Origin: Myxococcales bacterium
GTDB lineage: Bacteria > Myxococcota_A > Polyangia > Polyangiales > JAFGIB01
Direction of reading: 5' to 3'
Length of the DNA stretch: 60,385 nt
Assembly (NCBI GenBank): GCA_028817855.1
Contig: JAPPOT010000210.1
Span: 1 to 60,385, forward strand
A program made the position numbers and the translations under genes. The notes under the pieces are model-generated. The model was not told where the DNA came from. It ran no database searches and saw only the letters and a list, made by a program, of their open reading frames with translations. Numbering within the stretch: position 1 is the first letter of the stretch; each line of letters begins with the position of its first letter. Of this stretch, positions 13,381 through 23,197 are shown piece by piece.

Positions 13381-14406
13381 ATGCACACGGCGGTCGCAAT
13401 TCCTGGAGATGGCATCGGGCCCGAGGTGATCGAGGCGGTCTACCGCGTCTTCGAGGCGGTAGGGGCGCCGGTGCGCTTCGTCGAGCGCCACGCGGGCGAG
13501 GCCGCGCTTTCGGCCGGGGAGTCGGAGCTGCTGCCGGAGTCGACGCTGGCGGCGATCCAGGAGTACGGGGTCGCGCTCAAGGGGCCGTGCACGACACCGA
13601 TCGGCAGCGGCTTCCGCTCTGTCAACGTGCAGCTGCGGCAGACGCTCAAGCTGTTCGCGGCGGTGCGGCCCGTACGGACGATGCCGGGCGTGGAGACGCG
13701 CTTCGGCGACGTGGACCTGGTGATCGTGCGCGAGAACACCGAGGGGCTGTACAGCGGGATCGAGAACACGGTCGCCGAGGACGTGGTGATCTCGATGAAG
13801 GTGGCCACGCGCAAGGCCTGCCGCCGCATCGCCCTGTGGGCCTTCCGCTATGCGACCCACAAGCGGCGCGAGAAGATCACGGTCTTTCACAAGGCGAACA
13901 TCATGAAGATGACGGACGGGATGTTCCTGGAGGAAGCCCGGCGGGTGCACGAGGTGGAGTATCCGAACATCGCCTACGAGGAGATGATCATCGACGCGGC
14001 CGCGATGCGGCTCGTGCAGGACCCGTCGCCCTTCGACATCCTGCTGTGTGAGAACCTCTACGGCGACATCGTCTCCGACCTGTGCGCCGGCATGGTGGGC
14101 GGCCTGGGCGTGACGCCGGGCGCGAACTTCGGCGAGGAGCACGCCGTCTTCGAGGCCGTGCACGGCTCGGCGCCCGACATCGCTGGGCAGGGGCTGGCCA
14201 ACCCCCTGGCGTTGTTGATGAGCGGGACGATGATGCTCAATCACCTGTCCGACACGCGTGGCGACGAGGCCTGCCGCCAGGCGGCCCAGCGCATCAAGCG
14301 CGCCTATGACGGCGCCCTCGGCGCCGGCGAGCGCACGCGGGACCTGGGGGGCGCCCTCGGCACGCGCGAGTTTGCCGACGCCGTGATTGCGCGCGCCCAA
14401 GACTAG
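13381..14406 (+). CDS. isocitrate/isopropylmalate dehydrogenase family protein (NAD-IDH-like)
   Basis: IPGDGIGPEV, VIVRENTEGLYSG, NLYGDIVSDLCAGMVGGLG, HGSAPDIAG. 341 aa. Confidence 0.85.
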   Translation: MHTAVAIPGDGIGPEVIEAVYRVFEAVGAPVRFVERHAGEAALSAGESELLPESTLAAIQEYGVALKGPCTTPIGSGFRSVNVQLRQTLKLFAAVRPVRTMPGVETRFGDVDLVIVRENTEGLYSGIENTVAEDVVISMKVATRKACRRIALWAFRYATHKRREKITVFHKANIMKMTDGMFLEEARRVHEVEYPNIAYEEMIIDAAAMRLVQDPSPFDILLCENLYGDIVSDLCAGMVGGLGVTPGANFGEEHAVFEAVHGSAPDIAGQGLANPLALLMSGTMMLNHLSDTRGDEACRQAAQRIKRAYDGALGAGERTRDLGGALGTREFADAVIARAQD

Positions 14407-14615
14407 CGAGCGTTTGCGCGTTCAGGCGCCGCGGCGTCGCCTTCGCCAGCCGCGTTCGGCGATGCGGTGCGCCGATGTAGCCGCGTGCGCCACGCGCCCT
14501 TCCCAAAGATTCATCCGATTCCGTTTCTCCGTTGACGTCCCCGTATGGGTGCGTACGTCGCTGCGCGGTTGGATGTCCTTTCTTTCCTGCCGAGCCGCAG
14601 GGAACGCCCGCGCTC

Positions 14616-15260
14616 ATGCATCGACGCGCCGTACACCGTAGGTCCGCGACCTACCCACCCGTGCAGCTCACCCTGGTGGTGCTCGCAGCGTCTGCGAGCG
14701 CGTGCCAGGCGGCATCCGCCGAGTACTTCGCCGATACCGACCAACCGCGCGCGGATGATGCGTCGGGCGCGGCCCTGCACGACACCACCATCGAGTTGCC
14801 GGCCTCGCTGCGCGGCGTGCCCACGGGCGAGCGCGCGCCCACCGGTGCGCCGGTAGTGGTCGCCTGCGGTACCTGTCACAACGGCGAGCCCGGTGCGCTG
14901 CCCGCGCAGGCCAGCGAGGTCGCAGGGCCACACACCGGCCTGGTCGTGCAGCACGGCGGCAACACCTGCGGCTCCTGCCACGACCCGAACCGGCGCGACC
15001 GACTCAGGCTCGCCGACGGCCAGCAGCTCGAGCTGACCGAGGCCATGCAGCTCTGCAGCCAGTGTCACGGGACCCAGCGTCGCGACTACGACCACGGTGC
15101 CCACGGCGGCATGGCGGGCCACTGGGACCTCGCCCGCGGGCCGCGCACACGCAACCACTGCATCCATTGCCACGACCCGCATGTGCCGGCCTATCCGCGC
15201 GTGCTGCCCGCGGCGCCGCCGCGCGATCGCTTCTTCGGAGCCGGAGCGGGCCATGAGTAG
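14616..15260 (+). CDS. tetraheme c-type cytochrome (first gene of nap-associated module)
   Basis: Four CXXCH motifs (CGTCH, CGSCH, CSQCH, CIHCH). Signal peptide ending ASASAC. Start at ATG 14616. Confidence 0.8.
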   Translation: MHRRAVHRRSATYPPVQLTLVVLAASASACQAASAEYFADTDQPRADDASGAALHDTTIELPASLRGVPTGERAPTGAPVVVACGTCHNGEPGALPAQASEVAGPHTGLVVQHGGNTCGSCHDPNRRDRLRLADGQQLELTEAMQLCSQCHGTQRRDYDHGAHGGMAGHWDLARGPRTRNHCIHCHDPHVPAYPRVLPAAPPRDRFFGAGAGHE

Positions 15261-15425
15261 AACCCATCTCACAGCCTCCCGTGGGTGGATTCTGGAGCGC
15301 GACGGTGCCGAGCGGCGCATCGGCGAACGGAGGCAATGCGCGGGCATTGTTGAGCGTGAGGTGAGGCGGTGCGCGGTAGTGTCCCGCCCGGAAGGCGCCG
15401 CGAGGAGGCTTTGCGATGGGTTCTA
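15258..15425. mobile_element. MITE-like element, family A copy 1 (TA-flanked, IS630/mariner-type features)
   Basis: The 164-bp body (15260-15423) has TIRs GAACCCATCTCACAGCCTCC and GAACCCATCGCAAAGCCTCC (18 of 20 match). TA lies on both flanks. A copy about 85 percent identical lies inverted at 29167-29332. It sits between the cytochrome and FeS genes. Confidence 0.7.
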
Positions 15426-16321
15426 GGGTCACGCGCCGCCGCGCCCTGCGCGTCCTCGGGGCCAGCCTGGGGGGCAGCGCCTTCGCCTACGCCGTCGCGC
15501 CGGTGGCCGCTTTCGTGCAGGCCACGAACAAGGAGGAGTTCCTCCAGCAACACTATCGCGAGCTCACCGAGGCGGGGCTGGCCGACGTGCTGCGGCGGCT
15601 CGAGGCCGAGACCGCCCGCGACTACGGCGCCGACGTCAGCATCCGCGACCCGCGCCCGCTGCCCGACGTCCAGTTCGGCTATGCGCTCAACCTGAGCGTC
15701 TGCATCGGCTGCCGCAAGTGCGCCGAGGCCTGCCACCACGAGAACAACCACGACCGCCGCACGAACAACTCCTACATCCGCGTGCTCGAGATGACCCAGG
15801 GCACGATGGACATGGAGCAGGGGAGGGCCGACTACGACCACGCAGTGCCAGCGCCCGGCAAGTACTACATGCCGGTCCAGTGCCAGCAGTGCGAGAACCC
15901 GCCCTGCGTCGATGTCTGCCCCGTGCAGGCCACCTGGAAGGAGGACGATGGCGTCGTCGTGGTCGACTACAACTGGTGCATCGGCTGCCGCTACTGCGAG
16001 GCGGCCTGCCCCTACCACGCGCGCCGCTTCAACTGGCACAAGCCCGAGATCCCGGCCGACGAGATCAACCCCGACCAGGCGTACCTGAGCAATCGCGTCC
16101 GGCCCCAGGGCGTCGTCGAGAAGTGCCACTTCTGCCTGCACCGCACGCGCGAGGGGCGGCTGCCCGCCTGCCTCGAGGCTTGCCCCACGGGCGCGCGCGT
16201 CTTCGGCAACCTGCTCGATCCAGAGTCCGAGATCCGCTGGGTGCTCGCGAACAAGCGCGTCTTCGTTCTCAAGGAAGAGCTCGGGACCAATCCGCGCTTC
16301 TTCTACTTCTTCGACACCTGA
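15416..16321 (+). CDS. Tat-exported 4Fe-4S cluster protein (NrfC/PsrB/HybA-like)
   Basis: Twin-arginine signal MGSRVTRRRALRVLGASLG. Four Cys clusters (CIGCRKCAEAC, CQQCENPPCVDVCP, CIGCRYCEAACP, CHFC...CLEACP). SD GAGGAGG 7 nt upstream. Confidence 0.85.
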   Translation: MGSRVTRRRALRVLGASLGGSAFAYAVAPVAAFVQATNKEEFLQQHYRELTEAGLADVLRRLEAETARDYGADVSIRDPRPLPDVQFGYALNLSVCIGCRKCAEACHHENNHDRRTNNSYIRVLEMTQGTMDMEQGRADYDHAVPAPGKYYMPVQCQQCENPPCVDVCPVQATWKEDDGVVVVDYNWCIGCRYCEAACPYHARRFNWHKPEIPADEINPDQAYLSNRVRPQGVVEKCHFCLHRTREGRLPACLEACPTGARVFGNLLDPESEIRWVLANKRVFVLKEELGTNPRFFYFFDT

Positions 16322-16329
16322 TCCTCGCC

Positions 16330-17598
16330 ATGGCGACACCCTCCCACCGCATCAGCACGATCGACCACAGGGTCAACTACGCCAAGTTCCTGTGGCGGGC
16401 GCTGTCCGCGTCCACCGACGGCAGCTGGGGCTTCTACGCCGTGATGACTGCGCTGTCGGTGGTAGCGCTGGTCGGCGCCAATGCCTGGGCGCAGCAGCTG
16501 GTCCACGGGTTGGCGACCACCAACATGAGCGACCACGTCTCGTGGGGACTCTACATCGCCAACTTCACTTTCCTGGTCGGCCTCGCCGCGGGCGGCGTGA
16601 TGATGGTCATTCCGGCCTACGTCTACCGCGACCAGAAGATGCACGACGTGACGATCATCGGCGAGCTGCTGGCGATCGCCGCGATCGCGATGGCGCTGCT
16701 CTTCGTGGTCGTCGACATGGGCCGGCCGGACCGGCTCTGGCACATGATCCCGGGGCTCGGCCGCTTCAACTGGCCGATCTCGATGCTCACCTGGGACGTC
16801 ATCGTGCTCAACGGCTACCTGCTGCTGAACCTGCACGTAGTCGGCTATATCGTCTACCAGCGCTATCTGATGCGCCGGCCGAATCCGCGCTGGTACGTGC
16901 CCTTCGTGTTGCTGTCGATCGCCTGGGCGATCTCGATCCACACCGTGACGGCCTTCCTGTACTCGGGCCTGGGTGGGCGTCCCTTCTGGAACTCGGCGCT
17001 GCTCGCTCCGCGCTTCCTGGCCAGCGCCTTCATCGCCGGCCCCGCGGCGATCATCATCACCCTGCAGTTGGTGCAGCGCCTCACGAGCTACATGGTGCCG
17101 GACGGCCCCATCCGCACGCTGCTCCAGGTCGTGCGTGTCACCACCATCATCAACCTCTTCATGCTGCTGAGCGAGCTCTTCACCGAGTTCTACTCGGGCG
17201 GAGCCCACACCGCCTCGGCGCGCTACCTCTTCGTCGGTCTGCACGGGCACGCCGAGCTGGTGCCGTGGATCTGGTCGGCGGTGGCCCTGAACGGATTCGC
17301 CATCCTGCTGCTGGTCCAGCACAACGTGCAGTCGCGGCCCCTGTTGATGAACGTCGGGCTGGTGATGACGTTCGTGGGCGTGTGGATCGAGAAGGGCATG
17401 GGCCTGATCATCCCCGGCTTCATTCCCAGCACCCTGCATGAGGTCGTGACCTACATGCCGAGCGCGAACGAGTGGAAGGTCACGCTCGGCATCTGGGCCT
17501 TCGGCGGGATGCTCTACATCGTCGCGATCAAGGTGGCGCTGCAGGCCTTCGCCGGCGAGCTGCATCGCTCCATCCCGCCACCCCGGAGGAAGAGCTGA
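16330..17598 (+). CDS. NrfD/PsrC-family integral membrane quinol-interacting subunit
   Basis: 422 aa with multiple TM helices. WGLYIANFTFLVGLAAGG is typical of NrfD-like proteins. Start at ATG 16330 inside the longer listed ORF. Confidence 0.85.
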   Translation: MATPSHRISTIDHRVNYAKFLWRALSASTDGSWGFYAVMTALSVVALVGANAWAQQLVHGLATTNMSDHVSWGLYIANFTFLVGLAAGGVMMVIPAYVYRDQKMHDVTIIGELLAIAAIAMALLFVVVDMGRPDRLWHMIPGLGRFNWPISMLTWDVIVLNGYLLLNLHVVGYIVYQRYLMRRPNPRWYVPFVLLSIAWAISIHTVTAFLYSGLGGRPFWNSALLAPRFLASAFIAGPAAIIITLQLVQRLTSYMVPDGPIRTLLQVVRVTTIINLFMLLSELFTEFYSGGAHTASARYLFVGLHGHAELVPWIWSAVALNGFAILLLVQHNVQSRPLLMNVGLVMTFVGVWIEKGMGLIIPGFIPSTLHEVVTYMPSANEWKVTLGIWAFGGMLYIVAIKVALQAFAGELHRSIPPPRRKS

Positions 17599-17900
17599 TG
17601 CCGATCAGTGGCCTGATGGTGACCCTGCCTGCCGACGGTGCGGTGCGCGAGCGCGTCCTTGCGCACGTCGAAGCCGACCCGTGCCTGACGAGGGGCGTCC
17701 TGTCCGGGTTGCGCGTCGCGCTGGTCTCCGAGACGGGCTCGCCCGCCGAGGACGAGGCCGTCGTGGAGGGGCTGCAGCGCTTCGACGGCGTCTTCGTCGA
17801 CGTCATCTTCTACGACTTCTCCGACGTCGAGTCGGTCGATTCGCTGCCGCGCCGCCGTCGCCGCAGGCCCGAGCAGCACCACGCGGGTGAGGGAGGCTGA
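17598..17900 (+). CDS. napD: NapD-like chaperone
   Basis: 100 aa. [10 protein letters not shown]...[36 protein letters not shown] follows the NapD pattern (ISSLVV...VVVEA...IE.....GVL.V.LVYH). ATGA overlap with the preceding stop. Sits directly upstream of napA. Confidence 0.7.
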
Positions 17901-17901
17901 C

Positions 17902-20283
17902 ATGGAGCGTCGGGAGTTCATCAAGATGTCGGCCATGGCGGCCGCCGCGGCCGCGGTCGAGGCGGGGCCCGCGCGCTCGCAGCTCAAGGTCCTGCAGAAC
18001 GCGGGCGTGAAGTGGAACAAGGCGCCGTGTCGCTTCTGTGGCACCGGCTGCCACGTGCAGGTGGGCGTCGACGGCGGGCGCGTGGTCGCAGTCGCCGGCG
18101 ACCGCGACGCGCCCGTCAACAAGGGCCTGCTCTGCGTCAAGGGCTACCACGTGGGGCTGGCGCTCTACGGCAAGGACCGGCTCACGCGCCCGCTGCTCAA
18201 GCAGGACGGCAAGCAGGTGCCGATCTCCTGGGATCGGGCGCTCGACATCGTGGCGGAGCGGATCGCCGCCGCGCCCGATCGCTTCGGCATCTACGGCAGC
18301 GGGCAGTGGACCATCCCCGAGGGCTACGCCAATCAGAAGCTGATCAAGGGCGGCCTCGGCAACAACCACATCGATCCCAACGCGCGGCTGTGCATGGCCT
18401 CGGCGGTGACCGGCTTCCTGAGCACCTACGGCGTCGACGAGCCGGCCAGCTGCTACGACGACCTGGACGCGGCCGACGTGATCATCGCCTGGGGCAACAA
18501 CCCGGCCGAAATGCATCCCATCCTGTTCTCGCGCTTCATCGACCGCCGCGCGCGTGGCGAGCGCGTCGTGTTGATCGACATCGGGACGCGCCGTACGCGT
18601 ACCACCTCCTTCGCCCAGCACTACCTGGAGTTCAAGCCCCACAGCGACCTGGCCATCGCCAACGGCATCGCCCACATCCTGTTGCGGGAGGGGAAGTACG
18701 ATCGAGAGTTCGTCGAGAAGCACTGCGGCTTCCGCACCGAGGGTGAGAAGCCTTCGCTCTTCGGTGAGGCGATGGACTTCGAGAGCTACGAGCGCCAGCT
18801 GGCCGAATACACGCCCGAGCGGGTGCAGGAGCTCTCGGGCGTGCCGGTGGAGCAGCTGCGCATGCTGGCCGGCCTCTTCGCCGACCGAAAGAGGCGCATC
18901 ACCAGCCTCTGGTGCATGGGCGCCAATCAGCATACGCGCGGCACCGCCATGAATCGCCTGATCCACGGCGTGCACCTACTCAGCGGGCACTTCGGCAAAC
19001 CCGGCGACGGTCCCCAGAGCCTGACCGGCCAGCCCTCCGCCTGCGGCACCGCGCGCGAGGTCGGCACCCTCGCCCATGCCCTTCCCGGGGGCCGCATCGT
19101 CAAGAACGCGGAGCACCGCAAGCAGTGCGAGGCGCTGTGGAACGTGCCCGAGGGGCGCATCGCGGCCAAGCCGGGCTTCCACACGGTCAAGATGTGGGAG
19201 GCCTTCAGCACCGAGGGCGGCGGCATCGACACCCTGTGGGTCCAGGTCACCAACCCCGCGCAGAGCCTTCCGAACGTGCGCAAGCTCTTCCAGCCCAGCC
19301 GCAAGCTGGCCGACAAGTTCCTGATCGTCAGCGACGTCTATCCGACCGAGACCACTCGCCATGCCGACCTGGTGCTGCCGTCGGCCATGTGGGTCGAGAA
19401 GAACGGCATCTTCGGAAACTCCGAGCGCCGCACCCAACAGTGGTTCAAGATGGTGGAGCCGCCCGGCGAGGCGCGCGACGACTGCTGGCAGGTGATCGCG
19501 GTCGCGAAGCGCCTCCACGACCTCGGCGTGCCGGGCATGCTCGATCGGGACGGCCGCTTCCTCTTCCACATGGAGGACGCGGCCGGCAAGGAGGTCCCGG
19601 TCTGGGACTGGAGGCGCTACTACGACATCAACGTCGACGAGCGCCTCTTCAGCGAGTACCGCGGCTTCAGCCGCCTCAAGCACAAGGACCTGGCGCCCTA
19701 CGACGAGTACGTCAAGTCGCGCGGGCTGCGCTGGCCGGTGGTGAAGGGCGATGACGGCATCTGGCACGAGACCCGCTACCGCTTCGTCGAGGGTGAGGAC
19801 CCGTACGTGGAGAAGGGAGAGGGCTTCTCCTTCTACCACTCGACGAGCAAGAACGGCCGCGCCCAGATCTGGTACCACCCCCACGCGACGCCCCCCGAGG
19901 TGCCCGATGCCGAGTACCCCTTCTGGCTGTGTACCGGGCGCGTGCTCGAGCACTGGCACACGGGCAGCATGACGATGCGCGTGGCCGCGTTGCGCCGGGC
20001 CATGCCGAACGCCTACGTCGAGATGCACCGGGAGGACGCCCGCGCGCTGGGCCTGCGCAACGGTGAGATGGTCCGCCTCGAGACGCGCCGTGGCGCGCTC
20101 GACCTGCCCCTGTGGCTCGACGGCCGGGGTGCGCCGCCGCGCGGCTCCGTCTTCGTGCCATTCTTCGACGAGCAGCTGCTGATCAACGAGCTCACCCTCG
20201 ACGCTCACGACCCGGTGTCGAAGCAGCCTGACTACAAGAAGTGCGCCGCGCGCGTGCGCAAGCCGGGAGCGAAGGCCACGTGA
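17902..20283 (+). CDS. napA: periplasmic nitrate reductase catalytic subunit NapA
   Basis: Tat signal [35 protein letters not shown] 4Fe-4S motif. 793-aa molybdopterin oxidoreductase. SD GGGAGG upstream. Confidence 0.95.
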
Positions 20284-21059
20284 ACCTCCCCGGTGTGAAG
20301 ACCGGCCCGCGCGCCACCCTGATCGGAGTCGCGCTCAGCCTCGGCGCCGCGGCCGTCGTCCTGGTCTACTGGACCCGAGGCGTCCCGGAGCCCGCCGGCT
20401 ACCACGCCGCAGCGCCGCGCGACGGGGCCGGCTTCGAGGTGCAGCCCGCGCCCACCTATGGACAGCTGCGCGACCGCGCCTATGGGGCCGACCTCGATCG
20501 GCATGCGACTGCCTTCGCCGCGATGGGCCACCAGCGTCCCGAGCTCACCGCGGAGGTCGTGCGCAGCGCCGAGGCGCTCGCCGCCGCGCGCACGGCCCGC
20601 GCCGAGCACCGCGCGTTCGCCGGTGCGCCCCCGGTGATCCCCCACGCCATCGATCAGCGCGACTACCCCAACTGCATGAGCTGCCACGCGGACGGCCTCG
20701 TGGTGGGTGAGCGTGTGGCGCCCGCCATGAGTCACGCGCCCTACGCGAGCTGCGTCCAGTGTCACGCGCCAGCGGGCGCGCCGCCTCCGGTCGCAGCAAC
20801 CGCGCCCGCCGTCGCGGGCAACACGTTCGAGGGACTGGCCGAGCCGTCGGGGGAGCGCGCCGCGCCGGGCGCGCCGCCGACGGTGCCCCACAGCACGCTC
20901 ATGCGTGAGCGCTGCAACAGCTGTCACGGCGTGCTCGGTCAGGGCATCGTCACCACCCATCCGTGGCGCACGAGCTGTCTGCAATGTCACGGCCCGTCGG
21001 CCGCGCTCGATCAGCGGGACTCCTTCTCGCAGCTCTCGCCGCCGCCGGTGGCGCCATGA
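20280..21059 (+). CDS. napB: membrane-anchored tetraheme cytochrome built from two NapB-like modules
   Basis: GTG start overlaps the napA stop (GTGA). N-terminal TM helix [18 protein letters not shown]. Module 1 is [20 protein letters not shown]...[12 protein letters not shown] and module 2 is [18 protein letters not shown]...[12 protein letters not shown]. Confidence 0.75.
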
Positions 21060-21364
21060 GCGACGCGCCAGAGCTGCGCCCGCTGCAGCAGGCCGAGCTC
21101 GACGCGAAAGGCGTGCGCGAGCTGGCCGCCGACCTCGAGGCCCTGGCCGTCGTCCACGAGGTCCGCGTCAAGCAGCGTGCACGGGCCATGTCGGACGAGG
21201 GGCAGCTCGCGCTGCGCAGCGCGCTGGCGGCGCTGGAGGACGGCGAACTCACGGGCGTCCAGATCCTCTACACCTTCGACGGCCGCCGCTGGCTCGACAC
21301 CCTGATCGCGACCGCCGCGGGCACCCGGCTGGTCCGCAATCCGGTCCCCGGAGCGCCTGCCTGA
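21056..21364 (+). CDS. hypothetical cytoplasmic protein, last gene of nap operon
   Basis: 102 aa. ATGA overlap with the napB-like stop. No Cys, no signal peptide, no motif recognised. Confidence 0.5.
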   Translation: MSDAPELRPLQQAELDAKGVRELAADLEALAVVHEVRVKQRARAMSDEGQLALRSALAALEDGELTGVQILYTFDGRRWLDTLIATAAGTRLVRNPVPGAPA

Positions 21365-21538
21365 GCGCGGTCTGCTTCGGATTGCAGTGCCGGCGGACAG
21401 ACGTCGGCCTTGTCCGTACCTGTCGTGCGGGCGCCCCACCGTAGACATTTGGGGAGTCTTCGCAGGGAGTTCCTACGACGCTGTGACTGTGCGGCGGCGC
21501 ACGCTCCACCGCGGCGAGATGCTGCTACCCTGGGCGGC

Positions 21539-23197
21539 ATGGGACACGTGCTGAGAAGCTACTGGCTCGCGAGCGGTCTCACGCTGGCGGTCGCCGCGTG
21601 TGGTGGAGAGATGGACGGCGAGCCGACCGAGGACGGCAGCGGCGCGCCGGGCGCCGACGACGGCGGTGACGGCCCGTCGACCGACGATGGCTCCAACGGC
21701 GGGCCCCGCCCGGGCGGGTCGAGCGAGCCCGGCGGCGATGACTCGCCTGGGAGCAGCAACGTCGCCGGCAGCGGCAGCTCGCCCGGCGGTGATGGCTCGA
21801 ACGCCGGCACCCCGCCGAGCGCCGGTCCCACCCTGCCGCTGCCCGACGCGGTGATGACCTTCTACGTGTCCTCCTCGATGGGTGACGACGCGTGGAGCGG
21901 GAGCCTGCCCGAGCCCAGCGGCGATGGCAGCGACGGCCCCAAGGCCAGCCTCGAGGCGGCGCTCGAGCTCATCAACGGCGCGTCGCCGGGCACCCACGTG
22001 CTCTTGCGCAAGGGCGACAGCTGGGACGCGAACGCGACGCTGGAGGTCCGCACGGCCGTTGGCACCGAAGAGGATCCGATCGTGCTCGGCGCCTATGGCG
22101 AGGGCGAGCAGCCCACCATCGTCTCCCAGCACATGGGAAACACCTTCACGCTCCGCAGCAGCCGCACGGGGCCGTCGCACCACTTCCGTCTGGACGACCT
22201 GCACCTGACCTCCGCGAGCATCACGCGCGGCCAGACCGCGATCTACATCAACGAGTCCCTGCATCCAGAGCTGCCCCACCACCTGGTCTTCTCCAAGCTC
22301 ACGATCGAGGGCAACGCCACCGGCATCACGATGTACGGCAACGACCACCTGGTGCACGGCTCGCGCATCGCCAACAACACGATGGGTATGGGCATCTACG
22401 TGATGGGCAACAACGTGAGCTTTCAGTACAACGAGTTCGAGAACAACGGCCTACCCCCGCCCGACAACCTGGTGCACACGCTCTACATCTCGGCCTGCGA
22501 CGGCGTGCTCTTCGAGCACAACGTGGTGCACAGCGCGACCGACGGGTTGAAAGTGCGGCGGAGCCACAACGGCGTCTACCGATACAACACCTTCTACGGC
22601 ATCCAGGCGATCGGCATCCACCTCGGCGGCGACTCGATGGGCGGGGCCATCAACAACCGCATCGAGAGCAACCTTTTCTACGAGAACTCGGTCGGCATCG
22701 TCATCAAGGTCGAGCAGGGCATGCAGACCGAGTTGGTGGACGGGCTCGTGATCGCCAACAACATCCTGCACACCTCGGCTTCGGGCTTCATCGAGTTCGG
22801 AGCCCACCTGGTGATGACCGACGTGCCGGCCCAGAACGTCTCGATCGTCAACAACCTGCTCTACGACATGATCGACGACCACGGCATCTCCGTGCAGAAC
22901 AGCGGGCCGAACATCACCGTGGCCAACAACGTGGTCGGCAAGTTTACCCAGGGCTTCGCCTACAACCTCGACGGCGCCGTGGGCGCCAGCAACAACCTGG
23001 AGTTCTCCAGCGCGGCCGAGTTCGAGGCGCTGAACCTGGTCGACCCGGCCGGCTTCGACTTCACGCCCACCGCCGACAGCACCCAGCTGATCGACCAGGG
23101 CACCGACGTGAGCGACGTGATGACCACCGACTACGCCGGCGACCCGCGGCCCGCAGGCGCCGGCTTCGACATCGGCCCCTACGAGTACCCCGAATAG
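21539..23197 (+). CDS. right-handed parallel beta-helix repeat lipoprotein (pectate-lyase-fold, likely glycan-active)
   Basis: Lipobox LTLAVAACGG. G/S/D/P-rich linker. Repeated NN-containing beta-helix turns (IANNTMGMGIYVMGNNVSFQYNEFENNG, VIANNILH, IVNNLLY). C-terminal DYAGDPRPAGAGFDIGPYEY. Confidence 0.7.
   Translation: MGHVLRSYWLASGLTLAVAACGGEMDGEPTEDGSGAPGADDGGDGPSTDDGSNGGPRPGGSSEPGGDDSPGSSNVAGSGSSPGGDGSNAGTPPSAGPTLPLPDAVMTFYVSSSMGDDAWSGSLPEPSGDGSDGPKASLEAALELINGASPGTHVLLRKGDSWDANATLEVRTAVGTEEDPIVLGAYGEGEQPTIVSQHMGNTFTLRSSRTGPSHHFRLDDLHLTSASITRGQTAIYINESLHPELPHHLVFSKLTIEGNATGITMYGNDHLVHGSRIANNTMGMGIYVMGNNVSFQYNEFENNGLPPPDNLVHTLYISACDGVLFEHNVVHSATDGLKVRRSHNGVYRYNTFYGIQAIGIHLGGDSMGGAINNRIESNLFYENSVGIVIKVEQGMQTELVDGLVIANNILHTSASGFIEFGAHLVMTDVPAQNVSIVNNLLYDMIDDHGISVQNSGPNITVANNVVGKFTQGFAYNLDGAVGASNNLEFSSAAEFEALNLVDPAGFDFTPTADSTQLIDQGTDVSDVMTTDYAGDPRPAGAGFDIGPYEYPE

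Follow-up and report, generated by a model that had tools for sequence, protein, structure and literature searches.

A periplasmic nitrate reductase gene cluster with a putative NrfD-type quinol dehydrogenase module in a Myxococcales bacterium

In a Myxococcales bacterium, the periplasmic nitrate reductase (Nap) is probably supplied with electrons by a module of three gene products that takes the place of NapC or NapGH. The seven genes concerned lie on the plus strand at positions 14616–21364 of contig JAPPOT010000210.1, which was analysed over a 60-kb stretch (60,385 nucleotides, 70% GC; this whole stretch of DNA is called the window below). They encode a tetraheme cytochrome c (referred to as cytc4), an iron–sulfur (FeS) protein exported by the twin-arginine translocation (Tat) pathway, an NrfD-family membrane protein, NapD, NapA, a NapB-like cytochrome, and a conserved protein of 102 aa. 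We propose, at a probability of roughly 0.7, that these genes form a self-contained system for periplasmic nitrate respiration, in which the first three products—called the trio here—would replace NapC or NapGH as the quinol dehydrogenase. An initial annotation of the window had already listed seven co-directional nap and trio genes, and all of these were found again at the same coordinates.

Linkage of the trio to napDAB in related genomes

In a NapA-based scan restricted to one genome per species, the 80 closest loci were kept (NapA identity, 67–74%). Flanking DNA was sufficient for testing trio linkage in 71 of them, the other nine being truncated contigs. The trio was found directly beside napD-napA-napB in 71 of the 71 testable loci. 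The trio is co-directional with napDAB, as in the window, in 18 loci and head-to-head in 53, with the divergent loci sharing a promoter region (median of 434 nt from cytochrome start to napA start). Because the linkage survives inversion across two phyla, it constitutes strong evidence that the trio and napDAB are a functional unit. By label, about 50 of the 80 loci belong to Myxococcota and 13 to Planctomycetota, with the rest coming from vaguely labelled metagenome-assembled genomes (MAGs), and carriers include Sorangium cellulosum So ce56, Sorangium sp. So ce1014, Pyxidicoccus fallax DSM 14698, and Myxococcus sp. RHSTA-1-4. The same layout was also observed in independent gene-called contigs, one of which derives from a Verrucomicrobia-labelled MAG. 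Recurrent neighbours in the related loci are genes for Rrf2, NnrS, qNor, CRP/FNR, and ScdA, whose recurrence fits a nitrogen-oxide context, as well as one for a copper oxidase carrying a cytochrome c domain, which we take to be NirK-like.

Outside the cluster, the 60-kb window contains no further open reading frame in which at least two CXXCH motifs, or one of the form CxxCxxCxxxCP, are present. Furthermore, tblastn of the window with NapG, NapH, NapF-like, and NrfH/NapC-like queries gave only trivial matches to the FeS and NapB genes. The NapG and NapH queries were taken from the metagenome locus L111:2872-13582 (Ga0172371_10005031), which encodes an octaheme cytochrome, the trio, a NapM-like tetraheme, NapA, NapD, NapG, and NapH; this gene content matches the 11-gene cluster of Thermosulfurimonas dismutans (PMC5276818). 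The window is thus without a recognizable NapC or NapGH quinol dehydrogenase, and the initial annotation, which had reported no NapC, NapG/NapH, or NapF there, was correct on this point. In the related loci (flanks of ±10 kb each), NapH gave 0 matches in 80 of 80, and NapG-like matches corresponded to the NapF-like gene only. With the trio linked to napDAB in every testable locus and NapH absent from all 80, the supposition of the initial annotation that an NrfD-type quinol dehydrogenase supplies this Nap is supported.

NapC/NrfH-like genes were detected in only two of the 80 loci, in which they appear as NrfH-type tetraheme genes with a CANCHVM motif (L016:10263-10757 and L055:3533-5463). In L055, the NrfH-type gene adjoins a pentaheme NrfA-like gene near the nap cluster, suggesting that some members of the clade reduce nitrate to ammonium.

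Several observations weigh against the proposed role of the trio. The absence of another donor holds at the locus only, and NapC/CymA, NapGH, or bc1/Qcr may be encoded elsewhere in the genome. The first gene of the cluster is followed by a gap of 155 nt, and the seven genes may not form a single transcript. In sister clades, the trio is mostly not next to napA, its neighbours being diverse multiheme cytochromes. Finally, a homologous trio stands beside napMADGH in L111 and Thermosulfurimonas, and adjacency to nap alone is accordingly no proof that NapGH has been replaced.

CymA or a bc-type complex feeds Nap in some organisms. NapAB could obtain its electrons here from NapC/CymA, NapGH, or a bc-type complex whose genes lie elsewhere, leaving the trio to serve another periplasmic reaction, such as nitrite or hydroxylamine reduction, or reverse electron flow to quinone as in Qrc. 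This arrangement is made quite improbable by the cluster in the window, which consists of Nap components only, by the finding that in the 80 loci neither a different reductase gene nor an octaheme gene is a conserved neighbour of the trio, and by the count of zero for NapH, the donor search having covered the window and the flanks of the loci. Precedents for it are found in Campylobacter, whose Nap is reported to be fed through Qcr (PMC6195509), and in L111 and Thermosulfurimonas, where the trio occurs with NapGH and an octaheme Hao-like cytochrome and has been proposed for nitrite reduction (PMC5276818).

The wider distribution of the trio bears on a different possibility, namely that the trio acts as an all-purpose quinol:cytochrome c oxidoreductase, or "mini alternative complex III". 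It would then supply all the cytochromes of the periplasm (serving nitrite, NO, and N2O reductases, and oxidases), with Nap as one client only, co-located for co-regulation. An exhaustive search for NrfD among representatives at 50% identity returned 287 clusters at E<=1e-30, and the metagenome loci of sister clades (42–52% identity) were observed to keep the order cytochrome, FeS, NrfD. Because these sister-clade trios are flanked by diverse multiheme cytochromes and are mostly not linked to Nap, the trio may be regarded as a general quinol:cytochrome c unit that was recruited to Nap here; by descent, it would be a branch of the wider family of tetraheme/DsrO-like/DsrP-like quinol:cytochrome c modules. 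A generalist role here would be in keeping with the closest solved relative of the membrane subunit, ActC, and with a homologous "DsrOhPh-tetrahaem" locus, which has been proposed as a candidate alternative complex III (ACIII) (PMC13047784). Within the clade of the window, however, the linkage to napDAB is absolute (71/71) and survives rearrangement, and the genes in the window are translationally coupled, a pattern typical of a dedicated partner, so that we consider the generalist role unlikely for this trio. Judged from its conserved context, the trio would be a dedicated partner of Nap in the clade of the window, and it can coexist with NapGH elsewhere.

The protein components and the proposed route of electrons

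NapA (17902–20283, 793 aa), the predicted catalytic subunit with molybdenum bis(pyranopterin guanine dinucleotide) (Mo-bisPGD) and a [4Fe-4S] cluster, passes the NCBIfam model NF010055 (905.2 bits; cutoff, 904) and falls just under the cutoff of TIGR01706 (872.9 bits; cutoff, 930.55). Its best match in the PDB is E. coli NapA (2NYA, E=3e-223), followed by 3ML1_A and 1OGY_A, with the monomeric Desulfovibrio NapA behind. The protein carries a Tat signal (motif RREFIK), and its CRFCGTGC [4Fe-4S] motif and ARLCMASAV motif are aligned with those of 2NYA, the Cys of the latter presumably being the Mo ligand. On the basis of these matches, the protein is a NapA of the heterodimeric NapAB type. Identity as another molybdoenzyme was ruled out by the score with the NapA equivalog and the alignment with 2NYA.

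The product of 17598–17900 (100 aa) has no Pfam match by itself. A profile built from 34 syntenic homologues, 25 of which match PF03927, aligned over the full length with E. coli NapD (2JSX, E=1.8e-5, and 2PQ4). The protein is, by this homology, a divergent NapD, that is, a chaperone that would bind the Tat signal peptide of NapA and assist its export. Of the elements expected of a Nap system, NapA, NapD encoded beside napA, and NapB were found in the window, and a NapC or NapGH quinol dehydrogenase was not.

The initial annotation had described the product of 20280–21059 (259 aa) as a NapB-like cytochrome. Its membership in the NapB family was upheld (PF03892, 31.4 bits; cutoff, 25.1), with a profile of 46 homologues matching the structures 3ML1_B (E=1e-6), 1JNI, and 1OGY_B, and the description can now be refined. 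The protein contains an internal repeat, with a self-alignment score of 113 as compared with 28.4 ± 5.6 for shuffled sequences, and the repeat consists of two diheme modules of the pattern RA.GAPP..PH...C..CH......H.....C.QCH. Its four CXXCH motifs are kept in 73 of 74 homologues, and a hydrophobic helix spans residues 10–35 at the N-terminus. Read in this way, the protein is a tandem duplicate of the NapB diheme module, and is itself a membrane-anchored tetraheme cytochrome. An anchored tetraheme with a weak match to TIGR03153 (19.9 bits; cutoff, 134) might be a disguised NapC or NrfH; this identity was ruled out by the profile match to NapB structures and by the internal duplication of NapB.

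The first member of the trio, cytc4 (14616–15260, 214 aa), contains four CXXCH motifs that are invariant in 73 of 73 complete homologues. Since its hydrophobic N-terminal stretch ends in a Cys residue (Cys30, in LAASASAC, conserved in at least 70% of homologues), the protein is probably a lipoprotein or a signal-anchored cytochrome. Its Pfam matches are to the generic multiheme families Paired_CXXCH_1 and Cytochrome_C7. The match to the NapC/NirT family PF03264 covers only part of the profile and lies below the cutoff (21.6 bits; cutoff, 24.1), and the combination of PF03264 and an N-terminal anchor that would mark the NapC/NirT/NrfH family was found in neither cytc4 nor the tandem NapB. Scans with hidden Markov models (HMMs) gave no DsrJ match for cytc4. 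A sequence-profile search of the PDB returned generic multiheme matches alone (NrfA, reaction-centre cytochromes, and NrfB) and no close structure, and a Foldseek search of the PDB with its AlphaFold2 model (mean predicted local distance difference test score (pLDDT) of 82) returned only noise (best E=1.5).

The FeS subunit (15416–16321, 301 aa) has the Tat motif RRRALRVL and 16 Cys residues in four ferredoxin-type motifs, sufficient for four [4Fe-4S] clusters, and matches Fer4_11 (E=3e-22). Of the NCBIfam models, DsrO fits it best, with 194.8 bits falling just short of the cutoff of 200, and the next models lie much further below theirs (score/cutoff: QrcC, 166/400; ArrB, 141/450; TtrB, 138/416; NrfC, 122/378). 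The adjoining membrane subunit (16330–17598, 422 aa) matches PF03916 (135.8 bits), shows 9–10 hydrophobic helices by hydropathy, and passes the NCBIfam model DsrP (418.2 bits; cutoff, 350), lying far under the cutoffs of QrcD (47/570), NrfD (26/348), and also HybB. Its nearest PDB chains are ActC subunits of ACIII (6F0K_C, 8K9E_C, and 6BTM_C; E-values of 1e-7 to 3e-6). The features of the NrfD/PsrC family are all present—that is, an NrfD domain, 9–10 segments, and an adjoining gene for a Tat-exported four-cluster FeS protein—and the membrane protein is proposed to be the quinol-oxidizing subunit. Thus, the trio identities given by the initial annotation (tetraheme, Tat-exported FeS protein, NrfD) were borne out by HMMs; the module is DsrOP/ActC-like and not Nrf- or Psr-like, a point that the initial annotation had not made.

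Public databases name these proteins differently. NCBI calls some Myxococcota orthologues, such as P0073 and P0074, [quoted passage not shown], by way of the NF045798 cutoff, and JGI labels the membrane subunit "HybB-like" and the partner cytochrome "formate-dependent nitrite reductase cytochrome c552 subunit". In the context of nap, the DsrP, HybB-like, and c552 names are probably functional misannotations, an apparently systematic error to which the present analysis draws attention; misnaming as DsrP could inflate counts of sulfur-cycle genes.

More distant members of the NrfD family show some variation. The L111 protein (667 aa) has a C-terminal extension of about 250 aa that is HEAT- or armadillo-like, and P0122 (566 aa) and P0125 (859 aa), both at 48–51% identity, carry C-terminal fusions, one resembling a tandem CBS pair and the other, of about 450 aa, resembling an outer-membrane beta-barrel. 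The fusion to the beta-barrel-like region may be a gene-calling fusion. Where sister clades have the trio apart from Nap, the next gene often encodes another tetraheme cytochrome (about 186 aa, with a membrane helix at the N-terminus), as in L086:5528-6085 and 11 other loci; this cytochrome may correspond in function to the anchored tandem NapB.

In the proposed system, quinol—probably menaquinol—would be oxidized at the NrfD-family membrane subunit, and the electrons would be passed to the four [4Fe-4S] clusters of the FeS subunit, then to the membrane-tethered tetraheme cytochrome c, and from there to the four hemes of the membrane-anchored tandem NapB. NapA would receive them at its [4Fe-4S] cluster and reduce nitrate to nitrite at Mo-bisPGD. 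All redox partners are predicted to be periplasmic or to face the periplasm, as indicated by the Tat motifs, the lipobox-like Cys, and the anchor helix, giving a coherent topology. We infer the quinol specificity and any proton coupling, as well as the order of electron transfer, the latter from the cofactors present, the topology signals, and the parallel with Nrf, Psr, Qrc, and ACIII (PMC8076601).

A shorter route could be envisaged, in which NapA docks directly on the FeS subunit in a PsrABC-like manner and the two cytochromes are side branches: NapA keeps its N-terminal [4Fe-4S] motif, and three-subunit molybdoenzymes have, as their standard membrane module, a pair of FeS and NrfD subunits (PMC8076601). 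Direct docking is nevertheless highly improbable, with NapA being most like the NapB-binding enzymes (2NYA, 3ML1, and 1OGY) and with the tandem NapB and the tetraheme both conserved in essentially all loci.

Nap is usually regarded as non-electrogenic. Subunits of the NrfD family are the basis of Qrc, which conserves energy, and possibly of ACIII. An extension of the proposed system, which we regard as tentative and on balance doubtful, is that the NrfD-family subunit, FeS subunit, tetraheme, tandem NapB, and NapA assemble into a membrane supercomplex in which menaquinol oxidation is coupled to proton translocation, and which would represent a third, previously unrecognized class of Nap quinol dehydrogenase. 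If so, energy would be conserved directly by periplasmic nitrate reduction in Myxococcota and Planctomycetota, and it must be asked anew whether respiration with Nap can conserve energy. A widespread, dedicated NrfD-based route would alter how nap genes are to be scored in genomes and metagenomes, and Myxococcota and Planctomycetota with napAB and without napC or napGH would no longer seem incomplete. It would also give the "DsrOhPh-tetrahaem" family a testable physiological function. The cultured carriers Sorangium cellulosum So ce56, Pyxidicoccus fallax DSM 14698, and Myxococcus sp. allow such tests.

Gene junctions, the accessory gene, and the flanking regions

Junctions within the cluster are mostly tight, ranging from overlap to a spacing of 8 nt. 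The NrfD stop and the napD start share 1 nt in TGATG (17596–17600), NapD and NapA are separated by 1 nt, and the FeS and NrfD genes by 8 nt. The GTGA at 20280–20283 (NapA/NapB) and the ATGA at 21056–21059 (NapB/102-aa gene, a 4-nt overlap) are as the initial annotation had given them, whereas the ATGA that it placed at 17596–17600 is really the TGATG. Its description of the genes as tightly packed likewise fails at one place, the 155-nt non-coding gap between the cytc4 and FeS genes (15261–15415). Nothing was identified in this gap except a ribosome-binding site, GAGGAGG, ahead of the start codon ATG at 15416. The tblastn matches to cytc4 and FeS are separated by only about 10–100 nt in several related loci. 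A scan of 14000–22000 for promoters and terminators found no promoter-like sites and terminator-like matches at chance level, the scan being a weak test at 70% GC.

The locus is also present in a public metagenome scaffold (ENA scaffold ROBB21-1_SAMN13943228_METAG-scaffold_341; L081), which is 64 nt shorter than the window over the locus. In the cytochrome translation of this copy, XXXX (unknown bases) stands at the expected fourth heme motif, and the predicted gene continues into the FeS gene. The public prediction for this cytochrome is accordingly wrong, and the longer gene that it implies was rejected as read-through, in view also of the shorter span.

The cluster's final gene (21056–21364) encodes the 102-aa protein, a candidate cytoplasmic accessory factor of Nap. 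The gene follows napB in 57 of the 80 loci, and its family, which has the invariant residues Q69, Y72, D81, and R94 and the motif GVQ.RY..G..W.DTL....G.RLVR, is always last in the nap cluster (L003–L079), often directly after a gene for a NapF-like ferredoxin. The protein has no signal peptide, matches no Pfam family, and has no sequence relative in the PDB; a homologue search by word index returned 11 proteins, all named "hypothetical". The AlphaFold2 model (pLDDT 85) has a beta-alpha-beta-alpha-beta3 topology, for which Foldseek found no significant fold match (best E=0.018, template-modelling (TM) score 0.37). The protein would be a clade-specific accessory factor, and its family may be a new Nap maturation factor.

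A gene for a NapF-like or small ferredoxin lies between napB and the 102-aa gene in about 33 of the 80 loci, including L010, L011, L021, L043, L060, L063, L066, L070, and L074, and its product either has about 230–270 aa and an RR motif or is shorter, at about 110–130 aa. It is not present in the window, which has either lost this gene or never had one, because napB and the 102-aa gene overlap there by 4 nt.

Upstream, the cluster is flanked by unrelated genes for an isocitrate/isopropylmalate-type dehydrogenase, a zinc alcohol dehydrogenase, an ABM-domain protein, a Usp protein, and a trypsin-like protease. The downstream flank, also unrelated to nap, encodes a beta-helix protein, a major facilitator superfamily transporter, a radical S-adenosylmethionine protein, a MutS-like protein, and a short-chain dehydrogenase/reductase. 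The first of these (21410–23197), directly 3′ of the nap cluster, is a secreted lipoprotein-like protein of about 595 aa with a Gly/Ser/Asp-rich linker and a right-handed beta-helix, and matches the Pfam families Beta_helix and NosD. Since the NosD match reflects a generic beta-helix and no nos genes are nearby, a link of this protein to nitrogen metabolism is doubtful.

Comparison with known systems

The initial annotation could recall no such operon architecture among described nap clusters, and the open-access literature agrees. A review of the NrfD family lists 14 complex types and does not mention Nap (PMC8076601), and a Nap paper of January 2026 names only NapC and NapGH as quinol dehydrogenases (PMC12780646), the two points of electron entry that other primary papers and reviews also give. 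No description of this operon type was found in a search of open-access literature on Nap, NrfD, DsrOP, Myxococcota, and Planctomycetes, from which subscription journals may differ.

With respect to the known modules containing NrfD-type subunits, the NCBIfam models scored gave no equivalog-level match of the FeS or membrane subunit to NrfABCD, Qrc, Psr, Ttr, or Arr. The DsrJOP module of DsrMKJOP, which faces the periplasm, is more similar, in that the membrane subunit passes the DsrP cutoff and the FeS subunit is closest to DsrO. The cluster nevertheless falls outside DsrMKJOP: the seven genes include neither DsrM nor DsrK, the cytochrome is tetraheme, unlike the triheme DsrJ (PMC8076601), and the partner is Nap and not sulfite reduction.

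In ACIII (ActABCDEF), the ActC subunit is the nearest relative with a solved structure that the membrane subunit has, and the logic is alike, with electrons passing from quinol through FeS clusters and a multiheme cytochrome c to a periplasmic acceptor. Membership in ACIII is again not supported, with the trio having one NrfD-type subunit instead of two (ActC and ActF), no ActD, ActE, or ActF, no further membrane genes beside it in the cluster, four hemes where ActA is pentaheme, and an FeS subunit of 301 aa that contains Fer4 only and lacks the molybdopterin-like domain of ActB.

The same trio composition—a tetraheme, a DsrO homologue, and a DsrP homologue—has been reported for the "DsrOhPh-tetrahaem" locus of cable bacteria, Desulfobulbales, and Gamma- and Betaproteobacteria, which is separate from dsrMK (PMC13047784, 2026). 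That locus, described without a known function, has been put forward as a candidate ACIII that would carry quinol electrons to acceptors in the periplasm (PMC13047784). The comparison was made at the level of composition; the locus differs in its small TMH1 protein, which is specific to cable bacteria, and no link to Nap has been reported for it, whereas the partner here is NapDAB.

Trios near napA have been described before in other settings. Thermosulfurimonas dismutans and Dissulfuribacter thermophilus possess an 11-gene nap cluster with cytochrome c, FeS, and NrfD genes by napA, and the module was tied by the authors to nitrite or sulfur metabolism and not to Nap (PMC5276818). These clusters and L111 are unlike the window, containing NapM, NapGH, and an octaheme Hao-like cytochrome and lacking NapB. 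Suarez et al. (2023) mentioned in passing a multiheme cytochrome, a 4Fe-4S protein, and NrfD "downstream of Nap" in two Planctomycetota MAGs (PMC10732223). Those clusters were described with actD and were not read as a Nap quinol dehydrogenase, and the Myxococcota spread and the tandem NapB were not noted. Two of the loci retained in the present scan, L025 and L060, come from MAGs whose isolate names, OFTM229 and OFTM36, follow the scheme of that study.

Canonical Nap systems (napEDABC, napFDAGHBC, napAGHBFLD, and napCMADGH) have NapA, NapD, and a NapB-type cytochrome in common with the cluster described here, and are alike in periplasmic location, Tat export, and the use of quinol-derived electrons. 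They contain NapC or NapGH, whereas the tetraheme/FeS/NrfD trio is found at this locus instead; NapB here has four hemes and is anchored, an extra 102-aa protein is encoded, and NapF is lacking in the window. Overall, a Nap that combines a probable donor module of NrfD type, a tandem NapB with a membrane anchor, and a small accessory protein is apparently new, and is common in Myxococcota and Planctomycetota.

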